DNA from: Pseudomonas aeruginosa
GTDB lineage: Bacteria; Pseudomonadota; Gammaproteobacteria; Pseudomonadales; Pseudomonadaceae
NCBI RefSeq assembly: GCF_001457615.1
Contig: NZ_LN831024.1
Coordinates: 2,910,001 to 2,942,000 of the forward strand
Length of the DNA: 32,000 nucleotides
Reading direction: 5' to 3'
Below, in pieces: positions 6,451 to 31,716 of the stretch (the stretch's first letter is position 1; every line of letters begins with the position of its first letter). The translations under genes were made by a program, and so were the position numbers. Under the pieces are notes generated by a model, which was not told the origin of the DNA, ran no database searches, and was given only the letters and a program-made list of their open reading frames with translations.

Positions 6451-7518
6451 ATGCTTGACCCGACCCTGAGCGACTGGCTCGACCGCCAGGCCGACGCCCT
6501 CGACCGCGGCGACGCCGATCCCGCCGCGCTGCTGCCGCGCCTGGCCGCCGCCGGCGTGCTCGGCGTGGCGGTGGAGGAACGCCTCGGCGGCGCCGGCGGC
6601 ACGCTCGCCGACGCGGTGGAGCGGGTGGCCGCAGTGGCGGCGCGCTCGCTGACCGCGGCGTTCGTCTTCTGGGGCCAGCGCGCCTTCATCGAGTACCTGT
6701 TGCAGAGTCCCAACCAGGAACTGCGCCAACGCCTGCTCGGCGACCTGCTGGCCGGCCGCCTGGCCGGCGCCACCGGGTTGTCCAACGCGATGAAGTTCCT
6801 TTCCGGGATCGAGGCGCTGCAGGTGGTGGCGCACGCGGAGGAGGCCGGCTGGCGCCTGGACGGTCGCCTGCCGTGGGTGACCAACCTGCGCAGCGGCGAT
6901 TTCGTGGTGGCGGCGGCGATCGAACACGGGGAGGGCGGCAAGCCCTTCGTCCTGGCGATTCCCGAAGGCCTCGCCGGCTTGCAGCGCTCGGCGGACCTGC
7001 GCCTGCTCGGCCTGCAATGCAGCAACACCGCCGCCCTCGATCTGCGCGCGGTGGCGGTCGGGCGCGACTGGCTGTTGCACGACGACGCCCGGCAGTTCCT
7101 GCCACGGGTGCGCCCGGCCTTCCTCGGCCTGCAATGCGGCATGGCCATCGGCCTGGCGCGCCGCGCACTGGACGAAGTGCAGCGGCACCTGGGCGGCAGC
7201 CGTTCGCTCCTGGATGGCGAGCTGGCGGCACAGCGCGAAACCCTCGACGGACACGTGGCGGCGCTGCACGCCGGACTGGCCAGCGGCGAGTTCGCCAGCC
7301 AGCCGGCACGCCTGTTCCGCATCCGCATCGGGCTCGCCGAAGCCGCCGCCAATGCCGTGCAACTGGAGTTGCAGGCCAGCGGCGGCAAGGCCTACCTGAG
7401 CGAGCACGGCGCCGGTTTCGCCCGCCGCTGGCGCGAGTCGGCGTTCGTCCCGATCGTTACGCCGAGCCTGGTGCAACTGCGCGCCGAACTGCAACGCCAG
7501 GCCGAGGCCAAGGCATGA
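6451..7518 (+). CDS. Acyl-CoA-dehydrogenase-like flavoprotein (short, about 355 aa)
   Basis: The frame of ORF 6358..7518 is used. I prefer the ATG at 6451 (MLDPTLSDWLDRQADALD...), which follows AAGGAG at about 6438-6443. The overall sequence looks ACAD-like (GVLGVAVEERLGGAGG..., WVTNL...). The stop overlaps the next start as ATGA at 7515-7518. Confidence 0.7.
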   Translation: MLDPTLSDWLDRQADALDRGDADPAALLPRLAAAGVLGVAVEERLGGAGGTLADAVERVAAVAARSLTAAFVFWGQRAFIEYLLQSPNQELRQRLLGDLLAGRLAGATGLSNAMKFLSGIEALQVVAHAEEAGWRLDGRLPWVTNLRSGDFVVAAAIEHGEGGKPFVLAIPEGLAGLQRSADLRLLGLQCSNTAALDLRAVAVGRDWLLHDDARQFLPRVRPAFLGLQCGMAIGLARRALDEVQRHLGGSRSLLDGELAAQRETLDGHVAALHAGLASGEFASQPARLFRIRIGLAEAAANAVQLELQASGGKAYLSEHGAGFARRWRESAFVPIVTPSLVQLRAELQRQAEAKA

Positions 7519-8351
7519 GCGAGGCGCTCCTCGACGCTCGCGGGATCGCCCTCGGCTATCCGCGCGGTGCCGGCTGGCAGGCGGTGCTCGGCGATTTCGA
7601 ATTGCGCCTGGGCGCCGGCGAGGTGGTCTCGATCCTCGGTCCCAGCGGCGTCGGCAAGTCCAGCCTGCTGCGCGTGCTGGCCGGCCTGCAGGAGCCGGCC
7701 GCCGGCAGCGTGCGGGTACTCGGCGAGCCCCTGCGCGGACCGCATCCGGGCGTCGCGGTGGCGTTCCAGGACCCCAGCCTGCTGCCCTGGCTGAACCTGG
7801 AGAAGAACGTCGCCTTCGGCCTCGATTTCGCCCGCCAGCCGCACCTCGACGCGGCCACCCGCCAGGCCCGCGTCGACCAGGCGATCGCCGCGGTCGGCCT
7901 GGAGCACGCCCGTGCCCGCTACCCGGCGCAACTCTCCGGCGGCATGGCCCAGCGCACCGCGCTGGCCCGCTGCCTGGCGCGGCAGCCGAAGGTGCTGCTG
8001 CTCGACGAACCTTTCGGCGCGCTGGACGAAGTGACCCGCGCCGACATGCAGCAGCTGCTGCTGCGGGCGATCCACGAGCGCGGCACCGCCGTGGTCCTGA
8101 TCACCCACGATATCGACGAGGCCCTGCTGCTCTCCGAACGCATCCTGCTACTGGGTGACAGCCCGGCGCGGACCCTCGGCGAGTGGCGCATCGACCTGCC
8201 GCAGCCACGCGCGGAGCTGGTCGAGGAACTGGGCGCGTTGCGCATCGAGATCCTGAAAACCCTACGGCGGGCGAGCCGCACCCATGCCCATCCCATCGCT
8301 CAGCCGGAGGCCTCCCATGTGCCTGGACGACCCGACCCATTCCCGACGTGA
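7515..8351 (+). CDS. ABC transporter ATP-binding protein (NitT/TauT, SsuB-like family)
   Basis: The sequence starts MSEALLDARGIALGY. It carries Walker A GPSGVGKSS, the ABC signature LSGGMAQR and Walker B VLLLDEPFGALD. The start overlaps the upstream stop (ATGA). The ORF-track version from 6873 is an upstream extension inside the previous gene. Confidence 0.9.
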   Translation: MSEALLDARGIALGYPRGAGWQAVLGDFELRLGAGEVVSILGPSGVGKSSLLRVLAGLQEPAAGSVRVLGEPLRGPHPGVAVAFQDPSLLPWLNLEKNVAFGLDFARQPHLDAATRQARVDQAIAAVGLEHARARYPAQLSGGMAQRTALARCLARQPKVLLLDEPFGALDEVTRADMQQLLLRAIHERGTAVVLITHDIDEALLLSERILLLGDSPARTLGEWRIDLPQPRAELVEELGALRIEILKTLRRASRTHAHPIAQPEASHVPGRPDPFPT

Positions 8352-9516
8352 CATCCTCAAGCTCGCCGCGCTGCTCAGCGCTGCCGGCGCGTTGCCGCTG
8401 CTGAGCAGCCTGCAGGCGCGTGCCGCCGCCGAACCCGACGCGCCGGTGCGCATCGGCTACCTGCCGATCACCGACGCCACGCCCTTGCTGGTGGCCCATG
8501 CCAACGGCCTGTTCGAGGCCGAGGGCATCCAGGCCGAACGGCCGGTGCTGTTGCGTAGCTGGGCGCAGGTGATCGAGGCGTTCATCTCCGGCCAGGTCAA
8601 CGTCATCCACCTGCTGTCGCCGATGACCGTCTGGGCCCGCTACGGCAGCAAGGTGCCGGCCAAGGTGGTGGCCTGGAACCACGTCGGCGGCTCGGGGCTC
8701 ACGGTGGCTCCGGAGATCGCCGACGTGCGCCAGCTCGGCGGCAAGAGCGTGGCGATCCCGTTCTGGTACTCGATCCACAACGTGGTGTTGCAGCAATTGC
8801 TGCGCGACAACGGCCTGCGCGCGGTGAGCCGTGCGGTGGGCGCGGCGCTGGCCGCCGACGAGGTCAACCTGGTGGTGCTGCCGCCTTCGGACATGCCACC
8901 GGCGCTGGCCAGCAAGCGCATCCACGGCTACATCGTCGCCGAGCCGTTCAACGCCCTGGCGGAGAACCTCAAGGTCGGCCGGGTACAGCGCTTCACCGGC
9001 GATGTCTGGCGCAACCACGCCTGCTGCGTGGTGTTCATGCACGAACACGACCTGGAGCGGCGGCCGCAGTGGTCGCAAAAGGTGGTCAACGCCATCGTCA
9101 AGGCCCAGCTATGGACTCGCGAGCACCGCGCCGAGGCCGCACAGTTGCTGTCCAAGGCCGGAGCCAACCGCTATACGCCGCACGCACCGGAGGTCCTCGG
9201 CCGGGTGCTGGCGCCGGGCGCCGAGGAGCAGCAGGCCTATCTCGCCAGCGGCGCGATCCGCCACGCCGACTGGCAGGAGCGGCGCATCGACTTCCAGCCC
9301 TATCCCTATCCGAGCTATACCGAGGAACTGGTGCGGCGGCTGAAGGACACCCTGATCGAAGGCAATAATGCCTTCCTCGCCAGCCTCGATCCGCGCCAGG
9401 TGGCCAGTGACCTGGTGGACGACCGCTTCGTCCGCCAGGCCCTGGCAGAGGTCGGCGGGTTGCAGGCGTTCGGCCTCGCCGAGGGCTTCCAGCGCAGCGA
9501 GGAGATCAGCCCGTGA
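8317..9516 (+). CDS. Periplasmic substrate-binding protein, NrtA/SsuA/CpmA (NMT1-like) family, with a twin-arginine signal
   Basis: The ATG at 8317 follows GGAGG at 8306-8310. The N-terminus MCLDDPTHSRRDILKLAALLSAAGALPLLSSLQARAAAE contains a Tat-type SRRxxLK motif, a hydrophobic core and an AxA cleavage site. It is followed by RIGYLPITDATPLLVAHANGLFEAEGI, which is typical of NrtA-like binding proteins. The gene overlaps the ATPase gene by 35 nt. Confidence 0.85.
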   Translation: MCLDDPTHSRRDILKLAALLSAAGALPLLSSLQARAAAEPDAPVRIGYLPITDATPLLVAHANGLFEAEGIQAERPVLLRSWAQVIEAFISGQVNVIHLLSPMTVWARYGSKVPAKVVAWNHVGGSGLTVAPEIADVRQLGGKSVAIPFWYSIHNVVLQQLLRDNGLRAVSRAVGAALAADEVNLVVLPPSDMPPALASKRIHGYIVAEPFNALAENLKVGRVQRFTGDVWRNHACCVVFMHEHDLERRPQWSQKVVNAIVKAQLWTREHRAEAAQLLSKAGANRYTPHAPEVLGRVLAPGAEEQQAYLASGAIRHADWQERRIDFQPYPYPSYTEELVRRLKDTLIEGNNAFLASLDPRQVASDLVDDRFVRQALAEVGGLQAFGLAEGFQRSEEISP

Positions 9517-10277
9517 GGCAGACGCTGCGCCAGGGCGCGCTAGGCGTCGCCGGGCTGTTGACGCTGTTCGCCCTGTGGTGGCTCGGCGTGGCCCTGTTCG
9601 GCGCCGCCGACGGCCTTTCGGCACGCTTCTCGCCGCAGGCGACGTTGCTCAGCCTGGGTGAACTGCTGGAACGCCGCGAACTCTACGAGCACGTGCTGGT
9701 GAGCCTGAAACGGGTCCTGCTGGGCTTGTTCCTGGCGCTGCTGGTGGGAGTGCCGCTGGGGCTGCTGGTGGGCGCCTCGCGCAACCTGGAAGCGGCGACC
9801 ACTCCGGCGTTCCAGTTCCTGCGGATGATCTCGCCGCTGTCGTGGATGCCCATCGCGGTGATGCTGATGGGCGTGGGCGACCAGCCGATCTATTTCCTGC
9901 TGGCCTTCGCCGCGCTCTGGCCGATCCTGCTGAATACCGCCGCCGGCGTGCGCCAGCTCGACCCGCGCTGGCTGCAACTGAGCCGCAGCCTCGCCGCCAC
10001 GCCCTGGGAAACCCTGCGCCGGGTGATCCTGCCGGGCATCCTCGGCCATGTGCTGACCGGCGTGCGCCTGGCCATCGGCATCCTCTGGATCGTCCTGGTG
10101 CCCTGCGAGATGCTTGGCGTCAGCGCCGGGCTCGGCTACTACATCCTCGACACCCGCGACCGCCTGGCGTACTCCGAGCTGATGGCGATGGTGCTGCTGA
10201 TCGGCCTGCTCGGCTACCTGCTCGACGCGGCGGCGCGCGGACTCTACCGGCGCTGGGCGCACGGGGCGCTCGGGTAG
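9513..10277 (+). CDS. ABC transporter permease (SsuC/TauC-like)
   Basis: 254-aa multi-pass hydrophobic ORF. The GTG start overlaps the upstream stop (GTGA at 9513-9516). Typical binding-protein-dependent transporter features are present (...LSRSLAATPWETLRRVILPGILG...). Confidence 0.9.
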   Translation: MRQTLRQGALGVAGLLTLFALWWLGVALFGAADGLSARFSPQATLLSLGELLERRELYEHVLVSLKRVLLGLFLALLVGVPLGLLVGASRNLEAATTPAFQFLRMISPLSWMPIAVMLMGVGDQPIYFLLAFAALWPILLNTAAGVRQLDPRWLQLSRSLAATPWETLRRVILPGILGHVLTGVRLAIGILWIVLVPCEMLGVSAGLGYYILDTRDRLAYSELMAMVLLIGLLGYLLDAAARGLYRRWAHGALG

Positions 10278-10328
10278 GGCGAGGTACCGGTGCGCTGGCG
10301 GATAGCGCCGGGGCGCTATTCGCCCTAC
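10274..10328. repeat. REP-type palindromic element
   Basis: Outer inverted repeat GTAGGGCGA (10274-10282) / TCGCCCTAC (10320-10328). Inner inverted repeat ATAGCGCC / GGCGCTAT. The motif family is the same as in the cluster at 19904-20086 (GGCGCTATCCGCC and its complement). Confidence 0.6.
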
Positions 10329-10449
10329 GGGGTTCGGGGCTCGGGTGGGGCGGGCGAATGTGTTGATCCACCAACACTTGCCCAGCAGTTGCGCCCGCAC
10401 AGCGACAGGGGCTTGCCACCCAGGCCTTGTCCGGCGCGGCCCCGCGGCC

Positions 10450-10465
10450 CGGCACGGGCTGTGCA
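10450..10465 (+). promoter_or_regulatory. Candidate sigma54 (-24/-12) promoter for the monooxygenase gene
   Basis: CGGCACGGGCTGTGCA has GG at 10451-52 and GC at 10463-64, exactly 10 nt apart. It carries a GGCAC -24 box and a TGCA -12 box, about 38 nt upstream of the ATG at 10503. It is 15/16 identical to the element at 14558-14574 on the other strand. Confidence 0.5.
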
Positions 10466-10502
10466 CGGGGTGCCGGATGCACAGGCAAGCCAAGGAGTCC
10501 CC

Positions 10503-11912
10503 ATGCCGCGCGAAATCCGTCTCAACGCCTTCGAAATGAACTGTGTCGGCCACCAGTCGCCCGGCCTCTGGGCGCATCCGCGCGACCGCTCCTCGCAGTA
10601 CAAGGACCTGGAGTACTGGACCGACCTGGCGCGGTTGCTCGAACGCGGCCGTTTCGACGGACTGTTCATCGCCGACGTGCTGGGCATCTACGATGTGCTC
10701 GACGGCAATGGCGACGCGGCGATCCGCCAGGCCGCCCAGGTACCGGTGAACGACCCGCTGGCGCTGATCACGCCGATGGCCGCGGTGACTCGCCACCTGG
10801 GCTTCGGCCTGACCGCCTCGCTGTCCTTCGAGCATCCCTATCCCTTCGCCCGCCGACTCTCGACCCTGGACCACCTGACCAAGGGCCGGATCGGCTGGAA
10901 CGTAGTGACCTCCTACCTGGAAAGCGGCGCGCGCAACCTCGGCCAGCAGGCCCAGCTCGACCACGACCGCCGCTACGACTATGCCGACGAATACCTCCAG
11001 GTGCTCTACAAGCTCTTCGAAGGCAGTTGGGAGGACGGCGCGGTGCTCCGCGACCGTCGCCGAAGGATCTTCAGCGACCCGGGCAAGATTCACGAGATCC
11101 GCCATGTCGGCGAGCACTTCCAGGTACCCGGCATCCATCTCTGCGAACCGTCGCCGCAGCGCACGCCGGTGCTCTACCAGGCCGGCGCGTCGAGTCGTGG
11201 CAAGCGCTTCGCCGCCGAGCACGCCGAGTGCGTGTTCGTCGCCGCGCCATCGAAGACCGTGCTCAAGCAGGCGGTCGCCGACATCCGCCAGCGCGTCGCC
11301 GAGGCCGGCCGCGATCCGCGCAAGGTACTGGTGTTCAACCTGCAGACGGTGGTGCTGGGCGAAACCGACGCCAAGGCCAGGGCCAAGTTCGACGAATACC
11401 GCGCCTTCGTCAGCTACGAAGGGGCCCTGGCGCTGATCTCCGGCTGGACCGGGATCGACTTCGGCCAGTATCGGCCGGATCAGGTGCTGCGGCACATCCA
11501 CACCAATGCGATCCAATCGGCGGTGGAAGCGTTTTCCAGCGCCGATCCGACGCGCACCTGGACGGTCCGCGAGCTGGCCGACTGGGTCGGTATCGGCGGC
11601 TTCGGCCCGCTGTTCGTCGGCAGCCCGGCGACCGTCGCCGACCTGTTGCAGGAGTGGGTGGAGGACACCGACGTGGATGGCTTCAACCTGGCCTATGCGC
11701 TGGCCCACGAAACCTTCAGCGACGTGGTCGAATTGCTGGTGCCGGAGTTGCAGAAGCGCGGGGTGTACAAGACCGAATATGCGCCGGGGACTCTGCGCGA
11801 GAAGTTGTTCGGCGACGGCCCGCGGCTGCCGGATTCCCATCCGGCGGCCGGCTATCGCGACCTGCGGGCGCTCTGGGAGAAGGAGGCCGGGCGCAACGCG
11901 CTGCCGGCCTGA
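10503..11912 (+). CDS. FMNH2-dependent monooxygenase, NtaA/SnaA/DszA(SoxA) family
   Basis: The ATG at 10503 follows AAGGAG at 10492-10497. The N-terminus MPREIRLNAFEMNCVGHQSPGLWAHPRDRSSQYKDLEYWTDLARLLERGRFDGLFIADVLG is characteristic of the DszA/NtaA luciferase-like family. The product is 469 aa. The ORF-track version from 10290 is an upstream extension. Confidence 0.9.
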   Translation: MPREIRLNAFEMNCVGHQSPGLWAHPRDRSSQYKDLEYWTDLARLLERGRFDGLFIADVLGIYDVLDGNGDAAIRQAAQVPVNDPLALITPMAAVTRHLGFGLTASLSFEHPYPFARRLSTLDHLTKGRIGWNVVTSYLESGARNLGQQAQLDHDRRYDYADEYLQVLYKLFEGSWEDGAVLRDRRRRIFSDPGKIHEIRHVGEHFQVPGIHLCEPSPQRTPVLYQAGASSRGKRFAAEHAECVFVAAPSKTVLKQAVADIRQRVAEAGRDPRKVLVFNLQTVVLGETDAKARAKFDEYRAFVSYEGALALISGWTGIDFGQYRPDQVLRHIHTNAIQSAVEAFSSADPTRTWTVRELADWVGIGGFGPLFVGSPATVADLLQEWVEDTDVDGFNLAYALAHETFSDVVELLVPELQKRGVYKTEYAPGTLREKLFGDGPRLPDSHPAAGYRDLRALWEKEAGRNALPA

Positions 11913-22908: not shown

Positions 22909-24084
22909 ATGTCCAGTTTCGAACGAGAGCCAGGCTGCGGCCTGGCGGAAAATGTCGATCAGGTGATCGAGGCGGCATTCGCCGACCAGCGCCTGGTGGG
23001 GGCGGTGGTGCTGGTGGCACACCGGGGGCAGTGGCTCTATCGACGGGCTGCCGGCCTGGCCGACCGCGAAGCCGGCCGGATAATGGGCGAGGACAGCCTG
23101 TTCCGCCTGGCCTCGGTGAGCAAGCCGATCGTCAGCGTCGCGGCCCTGAGCCTGGTGGATGAGGGCCGGCTGGCCCTCGATGAGCCGATCGCCGACTGGT
23201 TGCCGGCGTTCCGTCCGCGCCTGGCCGACGGCCGCGAGGCGCGCATCACGCCGCGGCAGTTGCTGAGCCACAGCGCCGGCCTCGGCTATCGCTTCCTCGA
23301 AGCCGACGCAGACGGCCCCTATGCCCGCGCCGGGATTTCCGATGGCATGGACCTGCCGGGTTTCGACCTGGCCGAGAATCTCCGTCGCCTGGCCTCCGTG
23401 CCCTTGCTCTACGAACCCGGCCGCGCCTGGGGCTATTCGCTGGCCACCGACGTGCTCGGCGCGCTGGTGGAGCGGGTCGACGGGCGGCCGCTGGCGGAAG
23501 CGCTGCGGCAGCGGGTCGGGATTCCAGCCGGCATGCGCGACAGCGGCTTCCTCTGCGCCGACGCGTGCCGACTGGCGGCGGTCTACGTCAGCGACCGGCC
23601 ACGCCCGCGCCGAATGGCCGGGCGGGAGACCGTGGCGCCGTTCGAGGACAGCGTCGGCATTCGCTTCGAGCCGAATCGGGCCTTCGAACCGTCTGCCTAT
23701 GCGTCCGGCGGGGCGGGGATGATCGGCAGCGCCGGCGACGTGCTGCGCCTTTTGGAAATCCTTCGCCAGGGCGGCGCGCCGTTGCTGACGCCTGGCCTGG
23801 TGGAGGAGATGGGTCGCGACCAGGTACCCGGCCTGGAACTGCCGGCCAATCCCGGTTTCGGCTTCGGCCTGGGTTTCTCCGTGCTGCGCGACTCGGCCAT
23901 CGCGCAATCGCCGGAGGCTCCCGGCACCTGGCGCTGGGGTGGCGCCTACGGGCATTCCTGGTTCGTCGACCGGGCCCGCGAACTGTCGGTGGTGGCGCTT
24001 ACCAACACCCTGTTCGAGGGCATGTCGGGACGCTTCGTCAACGACCTGCGCGACGCCGTCTACCGTTCCGCGGAGCTGCGCTGA
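22909..24084 (+). CDS. Serine hydrolase of the class-C beta-lactamase / esterase family
   Basis: 391-aa ORF. The S-x-x-K active-site motif appears in FRLASVSKPIVSVAAL. GGAGAG lies 6 nt upstream of the ATG. Confidence 0.8.
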   Translation: MSSFEREPGCGLAENVDQVIEAAFADQRLVGAVVLVAHRGQWLYRRAAGLADREAGRIMGEDSLFRLASVSKPIVSVAALSLVDEGRLALDEPIADWLPAFRPRLADGREARITPRQLLSHSAGLGYRFLEADADGPYARAGISDGMDLPGFDLAENLRRLASVPLLYEPGRAWGYSLATDVLGALVERVDGRPLAEALRQRVGIPAGMRDSGFLCADACRLAAVYVSDRPRPRRMAGRETVAPFEDSVGIRFEPNRAFEPSAYASGGAGMIGSAGDVLRLLEILRQGGAPLLTPGLVEEMGRDQVPGLELPANPGFGFGLGFSVLRDSAIAQSPEAPGTWRWGGAYGHSWFVDRARELSVVALTNTLFEGMSGRFVNDLRDAVYRSAELR

Positions 24085-25337: not shown

Positions 25338-25538
25338 ACGGGGCTGCGCCCGGCAAGGGGAAAAAGGCTGCGGGTCTTAGAACGTTTATTCACCAGGGTT
25401 ATTTGGATAGGTCCGTTTCGAATATCCATCGCGTCGAAATACCGGCTGTGACGATGCGTTCCTCCGCCATACAGCGGAATCCGCTGTCATTGCGCCGAAC
25501 ATCTTCGCTGTCTCGCCGCTAGCCACCATGCAGCGCCC

Positions 25539-25554
25539 GGCTCGGCTGTTGCAC
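25539..25554 (+). promoter_or_regulatory. Weak sigma54-like -24/-12 candidate upstream of the Met-rich gene
   Basis: GGCTCGGCTGTTGCA has GG (25539-40) and GC (25551-52) 10 nt apart. The -12 box TTGCA is perfect and the -24 box is GGCTC, one mismatch from GGCAC. Chance matches are common in GC-rich DNA. Confidence 0.25.
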
Positions 25555-25561
25555 CGGCATC

Positions 25562-25589
25562 TTGCCGGTGCGTCGGCGCTGCCTAGAAT
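25562..25589 (+). promoter_or_regulatory. Sigma70-like promoter candidate upstream of the Met-rich gene
   Basis: TTGCCG (25562-67), a 16-nt spacer, then TAGAAT (25584-89), about 48 nt upstream of the ATG at 25637. Confidence 0.3.
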
Positions 25590-25636
25590 CGGCCCCATTC
25601 GCACCTACCCCCGCTTCGCCTACAGGAGTTACCGCC

Positions 25637-26140
25637 ATGATGAATGCCATGCAGATGCCGATGAACATGAATGCCGCCATACCGATGATGCCCATGATGG
25701 GCATGCCGATGATGATGGCGACCATGCAGTGCGAAACGATGGACGACGGCATGCTGTGCAAGATGATGCCGGCGATGGGTATGGACATGGGCCAGTTCCG
25801 CAACAGCGCCGAGATGATGGCGATGATGATGAACTGCGGCATGCCCATGATGATGCAGTGCGGCAACCTGGCGATGATGGGCATGTCCCAGGCCTGCATG
25901 GCGATGATGCCGACGATGGGCATGGGGATGGGCATGCCGATGATGGGCATGGCTCCGATGAAGTGCATGATGGAGTGCTCCATGCAGGGCGACGCCATGC
26001 ACTGCAGGATGATGCCGATGCAGGGCATGGACATGGAGATGTTCAAGAACTGCTGCATGCTGATGGCGAAGATGATGGAGTGCGGCATGCCGATGATGAT
26101 GAGTTGCAACGGCATGCCGATGATGTGCTGCACCTGCTGA
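25637..26140 (+). CDS. Hyper-methionine/cysteine-rich protein of unknown function (167 aa; by hand count about 66 Met and 15 Cys)
   Basis: AGGAG at 25624-25628 lies 8 nt upstream of the ATG at 25637. The product is MMNAMQMPMNMNAAIPMMPMMGMPMMMATMQCETMDDGMLCKMMPAMGMDMGQFRNSAEMMAMMMNCGMPMMMQCGNLAMMGMSQACMAMMPTMGMGMGMPMMGMAPMKCMMECSMQGDAMHCRMMPMQGMDMEMFKNCCMLMAKMMECGMPMMMSCNGMPMMCCTC. Only 7 of about 100 non-ATG codons end in A/T, so the host-typical GC3 bias holds in this frame. The alternative frames would need the disfavoured GAT and CAT codons. A perfect terminator starts 20 nt after the stop. Confidence 0.75.
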   Translation: MMNAMQMPMNMNAAIPMMPMMGMPMMMATMQCETMDDGMLCKMMPAMGMDMGQFRNSAEMMAMMMNCGMPMMMQCGNLAMMGMSQACMAMMPTMGMGMGMPMMGMAPMKCMMECSMQGDAMHCRMMPMQGMDMEMFKNCCMLMAKMMECGMPMMMSCNGMPMMCCTC

Positions 26141-26159
26141 TCCGTCGCCGGATGGAAAA

Positions 26160-26186
26160 GGCCCGCCCGGGATGACCGGGCGGGCC
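26160..26186. terminator. Bidirectional rho-independent terminator between convergent genes
   Basis: GGCCCGCCCGG (26160-26170), loop GATGA, then CCGGGCGGGCC (26176-26186). This is an 11-bp perfect GC stem. It is flanked by AAAA on the left and TTTCTT on the right, so each strand sees a stem followed by a U-rich tail. Confidence 0.8.
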
Positions 26187-26215
26187 TTTCTTCGTCCATG
26201 GCAGCAGGGCCGGGG

Positions 26216-26848
26216 TCAGTCCAGGCGCTCCGGGTAGGTCATCACCAGGTACGCCAGGGCTTCGCTATCGGCGGGGTTGCGGTAGCTGTGCGGCTGGTCG
26301 GCGTAGAACAGGATCGAGTCGCCGGTGGCGAGCAGGAAACGCTCTTCGTTGACCCGCACTTCCAGTACCCCCTGCGCCACCACCAGGTTCTCCTGGGTGC
26401 CGGGGGCGTGGGCCTCGGCGTCTTCCTGGCCGAGGCCGCGCAGGCGCAGTTCGTAGAACTCCACCTGGCGCGCCACATCGAAGGGGAACAGCGCGCGGCT
26501 GGTGAAGGCGCCGTCGGCGCTGACCAGGCGCTTGCTCTGTTGCGCCGGCAGCACGGCGACGCCGGCGAAGGCGCGATCGTCGAGGAAGGCTGCCACCGAC
26601 ACCTTGAGACCCTGGGCGATCTTGCACAGCACCTTGATCGACGGCACGCTGCGCCCGGACTCGATCTGCGCCAGCATCGCCCGGCTGACACCGGAAATCC
26701 GCGCCAGGGCGTCCAGCGAGAGATTGCGCTTGCCGCGCAGGCGCAGCAGGTTGTGGGCGACGCGCTGGCCAATCAGATCATCGGGTTCGGTATGCACGCC
26801 GGCGGCCAGTTCCAGGTGGGCAACGCCATCGCTGGCGGGCAGGTTCAT
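26216..26848 (-). CDS. XRE-family HTH plus cupin-domain transcriptional regulator
   Basis: 210-aa ORF. The HTH_3 region is IGQRVAHNLLRLRGKRNLSLDALARISGVSRAMLAQIESGRSVPSIKVLCKIAQGLKVSVAAFL. The C-terminal cupin contains ...HAPGTQENLVVAQGVLEVRVNEERFLLATGDSILFYADQPHSYRN. Confidence 0.9.
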   Translation of the reverse strand: MNLPASDGVAHLELAAGVHTEPDDLIGQRVAHNLLRLRGKRNLSLDALARISGVSRAMLAQIESGRSVPSIKVLCKIAQGLKVSVAAFLDDRAFAGVAVLPAQQSKRLVSADGAFTSRALFPFDVARQVEFYELRLRGLGQEDAEAHAPGTQENLVVAQGVLEVRVNEERFLLATGDSILFYADQPHSYRNPADSEALAYLVMTYPERLD

Positions 26849-26851
26849 CGG

Positions 26852-27010
26852 TCAGGCCCGGCGGCTGCGCTCGTCGTGCCTGGCTGGCGGTTGCGGCACG
26901 GCGTAGCCGGCCCGCCAGGCGTACACCGCCCACATCATTTCGCCCAGGCGGCGTGCCTGGCGGCGCGAGCGGTAGCGGGCGAAATCGATGACGTTGTCGG
27001 TGCGGTCCAT
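26852..27010 (-). CDS. 52-aa basic small protein, translationally coupled to the XRE-cupin regulator
   Basis: The product is MDRTDNVIDFARYRSRRQARRLGEMMWAVYAWRAGYAVPQPPARHDERSRRA. GAGGA lies 7 nt upstream of the ATG at 27010. About 90% of codons end in G/C. Its stop TGA lies 3 nt before the regulator ATG (TGAccgATG). The ORF-track start at 27073 has no SD and lies in the AT-rich island. Confidence 0.5.
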   Translation of the reverse strand: MDRTDNVIDFARYRSRRQARRLGEMMWAVYAWRAGYAVPQPPARHDERSRRA

Positions 27011-27070
27011 GAGGCATTCCTCGGGCGGCGGGTTCGATGGCAGCCAGACTATCCCTTCGCCGCTTAGAGC

Positions 27071-27198
27071 CATAAATACTAAGTTTTTATTTATTAATTC
27101 ACTTTTGTGCTTACAAGGAACGCCGAACCGTACGGAGCAGCATATTTATATTCTTTAAAGATATTTAAATTAATTTTCTTATTCCAATAAATTAAAGA
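27071..27198. promoter_or_regulatory. Strongly AT-rich divergent promoter island
   Basis: About 130 bp of AT-dominated sequence in a GC-rich genome (cataaatactaagtttttatttattaattcacttttgtgc ... catatttatattctttaaagatatttaaattaattttcttattccaataaattaaag). It contains the near-palindrome TTTAAAGATATTTAAA (27154-27169, 14/16 symmetric). It separates the small-ORF/regulator operon from the tauD-like operon. Confidence 0.5.
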
Positions 27199-27299: not shown

Positions 27300-28187
27300 A
27301 TGTCCGTTTCCCTTCCGGCGCCAGCGCGCGCCGACGTTCCTTTGCAGATCCGTGCCCTCGATGCCGCATTCGGCGCCGAGGTGCTCGGCCTCGACCTCGG
27401 GTTGCCCCTGGCCGCCGAGGACTTCCGCCGTATCCACCGGGCGCACCTGGACCACCATGTGCTGGTGTTCCGCGAGCAGCGCATCACCCCGGCGCAGCAG
27501 ATCGCCTTCAGCCGGCGCTTCGGTGAGTTGCAGATCCATGTGCTGAAGCAGTTCCTGCTCCCAGGGCATCCGGAGATCCTCATCGTTTCCAACATCGTCG
27601 AGAACGGCCAGCCCATCGGTCTCGGCGATGCCGGCAAGTTCTGGCACTCCGACCTTTCCTATAAGGAGCTGCCGAGCCTCGGCTCGATGCTGCATGCCCA
27701 GGAGCTGCCGGAGGAGGGCGGCGATACTCTGTTCGCCGACATGCACAAGGCCTGGGACAGCCTGCCGGAAGCCCTGCGCAAGGCCATCGAGGGACGCACG
27801 GCGGCGCATTCCTATACCGCCCGCTACAGCGAACCGCGCTTCGAGGGCAACTGGCGGCCGACCCTGAGCGCCGCCCAGCTCGCCGAGGTGCGCGAAGTGG
27901 TCCATCCGATCGTGCGCACCCACCCGGAAAGTGGGCGCAAGGGGCTGTTCGTCAGCGAAGGTTTCACCACCCGCATCGTCGGCCTGCCGGCCGACGAGAG
28001 CGCCCAACTGCTCGCCGAGCTGTATGCGCACAGCGTGCGCCCCGAGCACATCTACCGGCATCGCTGGCAGGCGCATGACCTGGTGTTCTGGGACAACCGC
28101 TCGCTGATCCATCTCGCCGGCGGTTGCCCGGCCCACCTGCGGCGCAAGCTCTACCGCACCACCATCCAGGGCGACGCGCCGTTCTGA
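27300..28187 (+). CDS. TauD/TfdA-family Fe(II)/2-oxoglutarate-dependent dioxygenase
   Basis: The ATG at 27300 follows GGGAG (27289-93). The sequence begins MSVSLPAPARADVPLQIRALDAAFGAEVLGLDL. The iron-binding H-x-D appears in KFWHSDLSY, followed by ...GGDTLFADM... and a C-terminal ...WDNRSLIHLA..., all typical of TauD-like enzymes. The ORF-track GTG at 27264 is less likely. Confidence 0.9.
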   Translation: MSVSLPAPARADVPLQIRALDAAFGAEVLGLDLGLPLAAEDFRRIHRAHLDHHVLVFREQRITPAQQIAFSRRFGELQIHVLKQFLLPGHPEILIVSNIVENGQPIGLGDAGKFWHSDLSYKELPSLGSMLHAQELPEEGGDTLFADMHKAWDSLPEALRKAIEGRTAAHSYTARYSEPRFEGNWRPTLSAAQLAEVREVVHPIVRTHPESGRKGLFVSEGFTTRIVGLPADESAQLLAELYAHSVRPEHIYRHRWQAHDLVFWDNRSLIHLAGGCPAHLRRKLYRTTIQGDAPF

Positions 28188-28227
28188 CGACGGCACGCGC
28201 TTCCCCCTTTTCGCCAGGAGCGTTTCC

Positions 28228-29250
28228 ATGAACCGCATTCCCCGTTTCACCCGCCTGGTCGCCGCGCTCGGCCTGGGCCTGAGCCTCGCCACCACGCTGC
28301 TGGCCAGCCGGCCGGCGCAGGCCGAGGGCGAGATCCGCATCGCCGAGCAGTTCGGCATCGTCTACCTGCTGCTCAACGTGGTCCGCGACCAGCGCCTGAT
28401 CGAAAAGCACGGCCAGGCCGAGGGCCTGCAAATCAAGGTCGACTGGACCCAACTGTCCGGCGGCGCGGCGGTCAACGATGCGCTGCTGTCCGGGGCGATC
28501 GATATCGCCGGTGCCGGCGTCGGTCCGCTGCTGACCATCTGGGACCGTACCCGCGGGCGCCAGAACGTCAAGGCGGTGGCTTCGCTGGGCAACTTCCCCT
28601 ACTACCTGCTGAGCAACGACCCGCGGGTCAGGAGCATCGCCGACTTCGGCGCCGGGGATCGCATCGCCGTGCCGGCGGTGGGGGTTTCGGTGCAGTCGCG
28701 CTTCCTCCAGTACGCCGCGGCGAAGCAGTGGGGCGACAAGCAGTTCGACCGCCTCGACAAGTACACCGTGGCGCTGCCGCATCCGGACGCCACCGCCGCG
28801 CTGGTGGCCGGCGGCACCGAGCTGACCGGGCATTTCTCCAACCCGCCGTTCCAGGACCAGGCGCTGGCCAACCCGAAGGTCCACGTGGTGCTCGACAGCT
28901 ACGAGCTGCTGGGGCCGAATTCGCCGACCGTGCTGTTCGCCACGGAGAAGTTCCGCCAGGACAACCCGAAGACCTACCGGGCCTTCGTCGAGGCGCTGAA
29001 GGAAGCGGCGGCCTTCGCCCAGAACGACAAGGCGGCCGCCGCCGATACCTATATCCGGGTGACCGGGGCGAAGATCGACCGAGCCGCGCTGCTGAAGATC
29101 ATCGCCAATCCGCAGGTGGAGTTCAGCGTCACGCCGAAGAACACCTATCCGCTGGCGGAGTTTCTCTACCGGGTCGGTGCGATCCGCAACAAGCCGGCCT
29201 CCTGGCAGGACTATTTCTTCCAGGACGGCGCGCCGTTGCAGGGGAGTTGA
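28228..29250 (+). CDS. Periplasmic substrate-binding protein (NitT/TauT, SsuA/TauA-like) with a Sec signal peptide
   Basis: 340-aa ORF. The signal peptide is MNRIPRFTRLVAALGLGLSLATTLLASRPAQAEG. The protein contains no Cys and no Met other than Met1. Confidence 0.9.
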   Translation: MNRIPRFTRLVAALGLGLSLATTLLASRPAQAEGEIRIAEQFGIVYLLLNVVRDQRLIEKHGQAEGLQIKVDWTQLSGGAAVNDALLSGAIDIAGAGVGPLLTIWDRTRGRQNVKAVASLGNFPYYLLSNDPRVRSIADFGAGDRIAVPAVGVSVQSRFLQYAAAKQWGDKQFDRLDKYTVALPHPDATAALVAGGTELTGHFSNPPFQDQALANPKVHVVLDSYELLGPNSPTVLFATEKFRQDNPKTYRAFVEALKEAAAFAQNDKAAAADTYIRVTGAKIDRAALLKIIANPQVEFSVTPKNTYPLAEFLYRVGAIRNKPASWQDYFFQDGAPLQGS

Positions 29251-31089: not shown

Positions 31090-31716
31090 ATGGAACGAAT
31101 GTCGCTCTCCGTGGATCTGCTGCTGGCGTTCTCCCTGTTCGCCTTCGTCACCTCCGTCACGCCCGGTCCGAACAACACCATGTTGCTGGCCTCGGGGGTC
31201 AACTTCGGTTTCGTCCGCTCCATCCCGCACATCCTCGGGATCAGTTGCGGCTTCTTCATCATGGTGATGGCGGTGGGCTTCGGCCTGGGCACGGTGTTCG
31301 AGGCCTATCCGGTGCTGTACACCATCCTGCGCTACGTCGGCGCGGCCTACCTGCTGTACCTGGCCTGGAAGATCGCCACGTCCGGCCCGGCCGGCAACGA
31401 CCCGGAGGGACGTGGCAAGCCGTTGAGCTACTGGGGCGCGGCGGCGTTCCAGTGGGTCAACCCGAAGGCCTGGGTGATGGCGGTCGGCGCCATAAGCACC
31501 TATACGCCGTTGCAGGGCTACTTCACCAACGTGGTGGTGATCTCGACGGTATTTGCCCTGATCAACGCGCCGACCATCGGAATCTGGGCCGGTTTCGGCA
31601 GCATGCTGCGCAACGTGCTGCGCGATCCGCGCTGGCTGAGGGTGTTCAACGTAGGGATGGCGCTGCTGTTGGTCGCGTCGCTGTACCCGATCCTCGCGGA
31701 AAGCCATTCGGCCTGA
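31090..31716 (+). CDS. ambA: LysE/RhtB-family amino-acid exporter
   Basis: 208-aa ORF. The N-terminus MERMSLSVDLLLAFSLFAFVTSVTPGPNNTMLLASGVNFG is the LysE-family signature region. The symbol comes from recalled synteny only: in P. aeruginosa the LysE-type ambA precedes ambBCDE and lies next to this tauD-ABC operon. Confidence 0.8.
   Translation: MERMSLSVDLLLAFSLFAFVTSVTPGPNNTMLLASGVNFGFVRSIPHILGISCGFFIMVMAVGFGLGTVFEAYPVLYTILRYVGAAYLLYLAWKIATSGPAGNDPEGRGKPLSYWGAAAFQWVNPKAWVMAVGAISTYTPLQGYFTNVVVISTVFALINAPTIGIWAGFGSMLRNVLRDPRWLRVFNVGMALLLVASLYPILAESHSA

Follow-up and report, generated by a model that had tools for sequence, protein, structure and literature searches.

We have analyzed a 32,000-nucleotide stretch of the Pseudomonas aeruginosa genome (contig NZ_LN831024.1, positions 2,910,001-2,942,000; the window hereafter), which carries a small gene encoding a protein of extreme Met content, PA2312a of the Pseudomonas Genome DB. 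The protein contains two copies of a ~59-residue module that occurs as an independent single copy in its relatives. Its gene converges on an operon, PA2311-PA2312, which encodes a regulator of the XRE-cupin class and is strongly induced by sulfur starvation. Gene, reading frame, duplication, family and synteny are established directly; the fold is a prediction and the induction of the operon comes from published data. From these we infer repression of the Met-rich gene by PA2312, a storage role for its product and proteolytic draw-down of the store. The resulting picture, which we favor tentatively, is of a sulfur-expensive protein, probably a sulfur reserve, that is shut off under sulfur limitation.

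The gene and its product are organized as follows, in window positions and with secondary structure as predicted by AlphaFold2:

25637-26140, + strand: Met-rich coding sequence, PA2312a, 167 residues.

25637-25708, + strand: N-terminal Met/Pro/Asn-rich low-complexity segment, residues 1-24, predicted to be disordered.

25709-25885, + strand: module 1, residues 25-83, a predicted β-hairpin/helix/β-hairpin that contains copy 1 of the duplication (strands 26-34 and 39-45; helix 51-66; strands 71-75 and 78-83).

25886-25954, + strand: inter-module linker, residues 84-106, including MGMGMGMPMMGM.

25955-26137, + strand: module 2, residues 107-167, with the predicted topology of module 1 and ending in CCTC (strands 108-117 and 120-127; helix 133-148; strands 153-157 and 160-166).

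The protein has a mass of 18.7 kDa and a pI of 4.6, and contains 66 Met (40%), 15 Cys (9%) and a single His. Sulfur-bearing residues account for 81 of its 167 positions (48.5%), which corresponds to 13.9% sulfur by mass. A sequence-only reading of the window had proposed an internal tandem duplication between residues 29-81 (25721-25879) and residues 111-163 (25967-26125), and recounting reproduced it in every particular: 28 of 53 positions are identical without gaps, 13 of them non-Met; four Cys occupy the same offsets in each copy (32/41/67/75 and 114/123/149/157); the linker carries MGMGMGMPMMGM; and the chain terminates in CCTC. At the DNA level, the copies agree at 114 of 159 nucleotides. 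None of 2000 composition-preserving shuffles reached the observed repeat similarity. The best 53-residue diagonal has 29 identities, compared to 18.4 ± 1.4 (maximum 24) in the shuffled sequences, and its 14 non-Met identities compare with 6.5 ± 0.9 (maximum 11). As all of the shuffles fall short, the duplication is real and not an artefact of composition.

Conservation was assessed over 52 non-redundant modules, with residues numbered as in module 2. The Cys quartet, which the same reading had expected to be conserved, holds up in three of its four positions: Cys is found at C157, C123 and C114 with frequencies of 0.90, 0.77 and 0.69, whereas C149 (0.19) is usually Met. The quartet thus consists of three moderately to well conserved positions and one that is lineage-specific. 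Other Cys positions are C165 (0.76), C140 (0.75), C110 (0.58) and C139 (0.42), of which C110, C140 and C165 have been lost from module 1 of Pseudomonas; no Cys is invariant among the 52 modules. The suggested invariance of an F-(R/K)-N motif did not survive the comparison, since its first position is Met (0.38), Leu (0.31) or Phe (0.29). The conserved positions other than Cys are P127 (0.90), G150 (0.90), M146 (0.90) and P152 (0.87). At the hydrophobic core positions, the frequency of Met is 0.65-0.90 compared to 0.06-0.35 for Leu, Ile, Val and Phe. Met itself appears to be selected, since it persists across phyla although Leu, Val and Ile are one base away, a change that in this genome goes toward GC.

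AlphaFold2, run with 23 sequences, models the protein with a mean predicted local distance difference test score (pLDDT) of 78.5 and a predicted template modeling score of 0.69, and each module reaches a pLDDT of ~90. The two copies are predicted to adopt the same hairpin-helix-hairpin topology. Together with the shuffles and the single-module relatives, this agreement sustains the earlier view of a structured module of ~50 residues, as opposed to random low complexity. Residues 1-19 have pLDDT values below 50, and the linker comprises a short predicted helix (residues 85-93) and a disordered stretch (residues 94-104). The N-terminal segment varies in length over the family, with long expansions in single-module relatives, and the length of the linker differs among strains and species. 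A single-module relative modeled as a monomer keeps the topology at a pLDDT of only 53; since this low value would suit a need for a partner, the two copies of PA2312a probably pack together as a covalent pseudo-dimer. A Foldseek search of the Protein Data Bank (PDB) with the model gave nothing significant (best E = 0.18). By inspection only, the N-terminus was judged to hold no signal peptide, as it has neither a basic n-region nor a hydrophobic h-region, and the protein is probably cytoplasmic.

The module defines a small family. Pfam and NCBIfam searches with the Met-rich protein gave no match, and a sequence profile search of the PDB returned 0 matches. A word-indexed search recovered 36 relatives, and exhaustive searching of 1.84 billion representatives with a profile only 62 clusters, mostly of proteins of 50-130 residues. 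In a typical relative, one copy of the module comes after a Met/Pro/Gly-rich tail. Such single-module proteins are found in Sorangium, Phyllobacterium, Magnetospirillum, Kofleriaceae and metagenomes, and two-module forms in Pseudomonas, a related metagenomic group and a Steroidobacter/Pseudoxanthomonas group, so that the family spans Gammaproteobacteria, Alphaproteobacteria and Myxococcota. Module 2 is 56-62% identical to the single-module proteins and 49% identical to module 1. Modules 1 and 2 each match their own counterparts in the P0012 group, and both modules of the Steroidobacter-type proteins resemble module 2 of the Met-rich protein; the fusion of modules is therefore old and may have arisen more than once.

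Besides the Met frame, the ATG-rich DNA leaves Ile-rich and His-rich frames open in the antisense direction and an Asp-rich frame open in the sense direction:

25519-26199, - strand: alternative open frame over the Met-rich gene.

25583-26002, - strand: alternative open frame over the Met-rich gene.

25528-26175, + strand: alternative open frame over the Met-rich gene.

A locus scan over 185,579 species genomes yielded 42 loci, mostly from Pseudomonas. In all 37 loci of the Pseudomonas type, a GGAG/GGGA ribosome-binding site, the start MMNAMQMP and the end MPMMCCTC with its stop codon are kept, and they are kept for the Met frame only. Nucleotide diversity at codon positions 1, 2 and 3 of this frame is 0.11, 0.12 and 0.19, respectively, and synonymous variation is found at 24 of its 29 invariant non-Met columns. 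The antisense Ile frame is broken by stops in ~10 orthologs. The antisense His frame stays open because its stops would be rare sense codons (TTA, CTA and TCA, for Leu and Ser), and its third positions fall on those sense positions that vary least. Given the conserved ribosome-binding site, start and stop, the third-position wobble and the interruption of the Ile frame, the Met frame is the coding frame.

This coding sequence is exactly the PA2312a entry in Table S4 of Trouillon et al. (PMC7901475), which places it in PAO1 at 2550619-2551122 on the minus strand (504 nucleotides). On more than 1000 P. aeruginosa contigs, NCBI annotation has the antisense Ile-rich open reading frame (ORF; 108, 89 or 117 residues) as a "hypothetical protein", and the antisense ORF is likewise annotated in a P. 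syringae record. PA2313 is most probably this antisense ORF, lying over the 5′ third and the promoter of the Met-rich gene. As most public P. aeruginosa annotations call the antisense ORF instead, omics studies misreport the PA2312a locus. Exact sequences of the Met-rich protein were not found in a collection of 15 billion proteins. Within P. aeruginosa, the protein carries the polymorphisms A13T, I15M, T29S and M121L (loci L043-L046; P0001), and one variant is without four linker residues, so that the low-complexity parts are evolving fast.

Downstream of PA2312a, the following features form its conserved and its variable surroundings:

26216-26848, - strand: PA2312, a SutR-like regulator with an XRE-type helix-turn-helix and a cupin domain (HTH_3 and Cupin_2).

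26852-27010, - strand: PA2311 (Q9I1G4_PSEAE), an ORF of 52 residues, first gene of the regulator operon.

27046-27080, - strand: conserved PA2311-PA2312 promoter region, TATTTATGG..., with a TAnnnT -10 element.

27300-29250, + strand: TauD-like dioxygenase (PA2310) and SsuA-like binding protein (PA2309), followed by an ABC transporter ATPase and a permease.

PA2312 has the XRE-cupin architecture, with matches to HTH_3 at 3.6e-13 and Cupin_2 at 5.3e-11, and is 32% identical over its full length (174 residues, E = 2e-28) to SutR (YdcN), which regulates sulfur utilization in E. coli. It shares this architecture with ErfA, PsdR, PauR, PA0535, PA1359, PA1884 and PA4987. The P. aeruginosa XRE-cupin family has eight members, of which those characterized are local repressors of neighboring genes (PMC7901475). 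PA2312 is silent in lysogeny broth (LB) and insoluble, its DNA affinity purification sequencing (DAP-seq) failed, and it is the only family member without a known regulon (PMC7901475). PA2311 was found by aligning the region upstream of the regulator genes. Its stop lies 3 nucleotides before the start of PA2312, and it is characterized by the motif xxVIDFxxYRKRKQAxxxAxxMWxMYA; a Pfam search with it gave no match. Recognizable versions occur in the Steroidobacter, Pseudoxanthomonas, Magnetospirillum and Phyllobacterium loci. Possible roles for PA2311 are those of co-repressor, anti-repressor or coupling leader.

Clustering of flanking ORFs identified the XRE-cupin regulator as the one conserved neighbor family, present within 6 kb in 37 of the 42 loci. 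It lies directly 3′ of the Met-rich gene and convergent to it in nearly all of these 37, including those of Steroidobacter and Phyllobacterium. The exceptions to this arrangement are Pseudoxanthomonas, in which the two genes are divergent, and a metagenome-assembled genome (MAG) of Kofleriaceae, in which they are ~2 kb apart; the pairing is also found in Magnetospirillum. The remaining five loci comprise two that are cut by contig ends and three without the regulator. Conversely, when the surroundings of regulator orthologs were looked up, the Met-rich gene turned up in both P. syringae and P. flavescens. As the 52-residue ORF and the XRE-cupin regulator are the only conserved neighbors in the flanks of the 42 loci, PA2312a does not resemble the precursor of a ribosomally synthesized and post-translationally modified peptide.

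The variable neighbors are repeatedly sulfur-acquisition genes of differing kinds. In the window these are PA2310, PA2309 and the ABC transporter genes; elsewhere they include SsuA/SsuC, MetQ/MetI, a permease of the cystine type, a sigma-54 regulator, and two permeases together with a sulfate-type binding protein. Among 143 immediate neighbors, we counted 7 NMT1_2 (SsuA-like) proteins, 9 ABC ATPases and 8 TonB-dependent receptors.

Published expression data tie the operon to sulfur supply. In PAO1 grown without sulfur, RNA sequencing (RNA-seq) gave a log2 fold change of +6.59 (96-fold) for PA2311 (Ugochukwu et al. 2025, PMC12581299) and of +5.47 (44-fold) for PA2312, the protein of which rose by +3.22 (PMC12581299). 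The neighboring PA2310, PA2308 and PA2314 rose by +6.13, +5.98 and +2.75, respectively (PMC12581299). PA2313 fell by -2.31 (~5-fold; adjusted P 1.8e-4, average expression 7.5) (PMC12581299). The annotation used for this RNA-seq did not contain PA2312a. The library kit named by the authors of the starvation study is the non-directional one. With such a library and without PA2312a in the annotation, reads from the 5′ part of the Met-rich mRNA would be counted as PA2313, and read-through from the induced convergent operon would raise, not lower, these counts. The PA2313 signal thus seems to report the mRNA of the Met-rich gene. In a PA3973 overproducer, PA2311 is among the top induced genes, with cysT and PA3445-3446, and PA2312 is up 3.3-fold. 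In PA14 exposed to a lacritin fragment, PA14_34740 is up 4.5-fold and PA14_34720 is down 6.9-fold; the presumed counterparts of these tags are PA2311 and the PA2313/PA2312a locus, respectively.

The neighbors induced by sulfur starvation contain little Met and Cys (0.3% in the SsuA-like protein, 1.4% in the TauD-like protein and 1.9% in PA2312), compared to 48.5% in PA2312a. The SsuA-like protein has one such residue in 340, the initiator, a sulfur-sparing composition beside the most sulfur-rich protein of the window.

The cis elements of the Met-rich gene, which bear on its regulation, are:

25377-25429, strand not assigned: AT-rich block of 53 nucleotides with sharp borders, candidate regulator-binding region.

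25562-25589, + strand: sigma-70-type promoter TTGCCG-16 nt-TAGAAT.

25624-25628, + strand: ribosome-binding site AGGAG, 8 nucleotides upstream of the ATG, kept as GGAG/GGGA in orthologs.

26150-26197, strand not assigned: hairpin of a bidirectional intrinsic terminator, lying between the convergent genes (core 26160-26186).

The promoter signature CTTG...TAGAAT is nearly invariant over ~35 Pseudomonas loci. The 53-nucleotide block accompanies the Met-rich gene in all Pseudomonas loci, with the consensus TTAGAnCGnTTATTy-n5-GGTTATTT-nn-ATAG-n9-G(A/C)ATATCCAT, and ends (25429) ~130 nucleotides upstream of the -35 element, which starts at 25562; it may be an operator, a second promoter or a site for an activator. 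In many species, this block and the -35 region of the PA2311 promoter have in common a TTATTT(C)-type element, often in the form GGTTAT-N4-ATA(A/G)C. In addition, an inverted repeat, GCACCGGCA-N3-TGCCGGTGC (25551-25571), lies over the -35 hexamer; it is clear in P. aeruginosa and weakly conserved elsewhere. Dyad scans and cross-promoter matching aimed at an operator brought up just the TTATTT(C)-type element and the P. aeruginosa-specific -35 dyad, which are suggestive but are not taken to be an operator. An upstream sigma-54 promoter was rejected on inspection of the alignment, as its GG and GC are one base too far apart and the motif lacks conservation. The published DAP-seq data include a PA0535 peak at PAO1 2550666-2551318 (~25441-26093), with its summit within PA2312a, ~27 bp from the 5′ end of the gene; being one of more than 100 peaks and possibly non-specific, it is not counted as evidence. 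The stops of PA2312a and PA2312 (26140 and 26216) are 75 nucleotides apart. The terminator hairpin between them has a folding energy of -42 kcal/mol (z = -5.5 compared to shuffles) and is followed by a T-run on both strands. An Rfam scan of the whole window gave no match.

As the conserved partner of PA2312a is an XRE-cupin operon induced by sulfur starvation, its function is more likely to lie in sulfur economy than in metal handling. With sulfur in ample supply, the strong sigma-70 promoter would drive synthesis of the Met-rich protein as a reserve of Met and Cys. Once sulfur is exhausted, the PA2311-PA2312 operon would be induced to the 44- to 96-fold extent recorded, and PA2312, like its characterized paralogs, would then repress the neighboring Met-rich gene, while the existing protein would be proteolysed to feed the Met and Cys pools. 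The protein is enriched in the element concerned, as a reserve should be, with nearly half of its residues bearing sulfur and Met favored over Leu, Ile, Val and Phe across phyla. Compared to other XRE-cupin units, that of PA2312 is distinguished by a candidate target that is storage-like and not a catabolic enzyme or transporter, and by the 52-residue ORF that precedes the regulator.

The closest parallels are plant seed storage proteins, such as the 10- and 18-kDa δ-zeins and the 2S albumins of Brazil nut and sunflower, which are likewise small and extremely rich in Met (and Cys). They form a reserve of reduced sulfur, and their synthesis tracks sulfur supply. The δ-zein DZS18, for example, contains 24% Met (PMC3514235). 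There is no sequence or fold relation between the two groups. The plant proteins are eukaryotic, targeted to the endoplasmic reticulum, deposited in protein bodies and contain 16-27% Met, whereas PA2312a is bacterial, has a predicted hairpin-helix-hairpin architecture and 40% Met plus 9% Cys, and its storage role is only proposed. Among bacterial proteins, Met-rich substrates of methionine sulfoxide reductases (Msrs), MRP1 FeNos of Nostoc (33% Met, 12% Cys) and MRP4 of P. putida W619 (PMC3514235), are hypothetical proteins of the same compositional class. They were picked as assay tools, with no genomic context or regulation described (PMC3514235).

Several observations weigh against a regulated sulfur store. 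The support for a link from PA2312 to the Met-rich promoter is indirect, coming from their conserved adjacency and their opposite changes in expression, the DAP-seq of PA2312 having failed (PMC7901475), and the 53-nucleotide block, ~130 nucleotides upstream of the -35 element, is not in a classic repressor position. The assignments of PA2313 and of the PA14 tags derive from gene order and overlapping ORF calls, and the fall in mRNA could reflect ribosome stalling on 66 Met codons and not repression. Expression of PA2312a in LB is modest (base mean ~75; PMC7901475), which is low for a bulk store. Three loci carry the Met-rich gene without the regulator; and a P. putida strain (L050, 2833-3642) has a PA2311-like ORF and the regulator beside a sulfonate-type ABC transporter, where the Met-rich gene was not found, which implies that the regulator has other roles. 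Finally, the conservation of P127, G150, P152 and C157 (at least 0.87), together with the confident fold, suggests a specific function beyond ballast.

Bacteria store carbon, phosphorus, nitrogen and iron. A dedicated bacterial protein store of reduced sulfur was not found in the searchable literature, in which "sulfur storage protein" matches plant or archaeal reviews and the locus of the Met-rich gene appears in lists only. PA2312a is a readily testable candidate for such a store, with half of its residues Met or Cys, a locus that responds opposite to the starvation regulon and its own regulator that travels with it; the orphan regulator PA2312, in turn, gains a candidate target and an inducing condition. 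It is also unusual for a confidently predicted domain with a mostly Met core to have no counterpart in the PDB. XRE-cupin regulators as a class and the notion of reserve proteins rich in sulfur are already known; new are their combination, the module with its Met core and a regulation inverse to that of the sulfur-starvation regulon. A broader proposition, that these are the first dedicated bacterial sulfur-reserve proteins, with a Met core, made in sulfur sufficiency, shut off by PA2312 and PA2311 as the repressor system and mobilized by proteolysis, is one that we hold with more doubt.

So much sulfur could also serve as ligand. Met thioethers and Cys lining the core or the interface might bind or buffer soft metals (Cu(I), Ag(I), Cd, Hg), as the dominance of sulfur ligands (66 Met and 15 Cys) and the fair conservation of several Cys (0.75-0.90 at C157, C123, C165 and C140) would allow. 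The hairpin register, taken from the AlphaFold2 secondary structure, would place C114 opposite C123. The MxM/MPM repeats of the N-terminal segment resemble Mets motifs, which are known from Ctr1, CusF and PcoE, and TonB-dependent receptors and extracytoplasmic function (ECF) sigma factors are neighbors in 5-8 loci. The resemblance to known metal-binding proteins does not extend far. Csp1, Csp3 and the metallothioneins SmtA and BmtA are also small, with dominant sulfur ligands that could line an interior. However, the Csp proteins are Cys-lined four-helix bundles, in contrast to the hairpin-helix-hairpin predicted twice in PA2312a, and metallothioneins contain 15-30% Cys in CxC/CxxC motifs and few hydrophobic residues, compared to 9% Cys in CC pairs only. 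The periplasmic Cu(I)/Ag(I) binders (CusF, PcoE/SilE, CopK and the Met-rich inserts of CueO/PcoA) share MxM/MxxM-type repeats with PA2312a, but they are exported, contain ~10-15% Met and often His, and are encoded in cus, pco, sil or cop operons, none of which applies here. Searches of Pfam, NCBIfam and the PDB, and Foldseek, gave no match in sequence or fold to metallothioneins, Csp proteins or CusF. The neighborhoods hold no conserved MerR/CueR, CopRS, ArsR, P-type ATPase, resistance-nodulation-division pump or chaperone, and it is sulfur starvation to which the conserved partner responds. Cu(I) sites formed by Met are typically periplasmic, whereas PA2312a has no recognizable signal peptide. 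It has one His only, none of its Cys is invariant, and Met usually stands in place of C149 in the quartet. We therefore consider a role in metal binding unlikely.

Alternatively, the protein may have some other specific function, for instance in binding a partner protein or a ligand that is hydrophobic or contains sulfur, and its sulfur cost would merely make it a target of sulfur sparing. The sparing of sulfur-rich proteins is a general trait of the sulfate-starvation response. The confident predicted fold, the conserved non-Met positions and the modest expression agree with such a function, as does the finding that a transposon insertion annotated as PA2313 renders biofilms more susceptible to tobramycin (PMC9262955). 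The difficulty lies in the Met itself: its preference over Leu, Ile and Val at nearly every hydrophobic position and the free expansion of the Met-rich low-complexity tails would be left unexplained, and apart from the regulator operon there is no conserved candidate for a partner. A function of this kind also seems unlikely.

A sacrificial antioxidant, in which Met scavenges HOCl or H2O2 and is regenerated by MsrA and MsrB, would resemble Met-rich proteins that are oxidized efficiently by these oxidants and re-reduced by Msrs (PMC3514235), and RclR-like AraC regulators are found nearby in 3 loci. However, biofilms of the PA2313::IS mutant have wild-type susceptibility to H2O2 (PMC9262955), sulfur starvation raises Ohr, LsfA and SodB while the PA2313/PA2312a locus falls, and no msr gene is conserved in the neighborhoods. 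The normal susceptibility of the insertion mutant and the opposite course of locus and antioxidant genes weaken this role, and we regard it as very unlikely.

Translation of the 66 Met and 15 Cys codons might, in itself, report the supply of Met- and Cys-tRNA and act on the convergent operon via transcriptional interference or mRNA fate. The strictly conserved convergent arrangement, with 75 nucleotides between the stops and a shared terminator, and the drop in mRNA over the 5′ end during sulfur starvation would fit such a gauge. The conserved non-Met residues, the confident fold and the exact C-terminus point instead to selection on the protein product, and the terminator is strong, which makes a translational gauge highly improbable. 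That the stretch is not a gene at all, being ATG-rich low-complexity DNA or having the antisense ORF as its true gene, as the three further open frames and the antisense calls by NCBI on P. aeruginosa contigs and in P. syringae might suggest, is refuted by the conservation of the frame in orthologs and the diversity by codon position, and is at odds with the homologs in other phyla, such that it can practically be set aside.

Some further features of the loci deserve mention. In one Pseudomonas subgroup, genes for a TonB-dependent receptor, an ECF sigma factor and an anti-sigma-like protein flank the regulator operon:

Loci L015, L021, L023, L025 and L034, about 7300-11500: TonB/ECF flanking genes, P. 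fluorescens group.

In the Kofleriaceae MAG, three tandem paralogs of ~100 residues (L038, 6873-7909, + strand) lie between the Met-rich and XRE-cupin genes; each has a double-glycine leader-like motif, LSxVxGGK, and the look of a bacteriocin precursor. Elsewhere in the window, a class C β-lactamase-like gene (22909-24084, + strand) is located upstream of a major facilitator superfamily transporter, and a LysE-type exporter gene at the window end (31090-31716, + strand) is consistent with ambA of the AMB toxin cluster.

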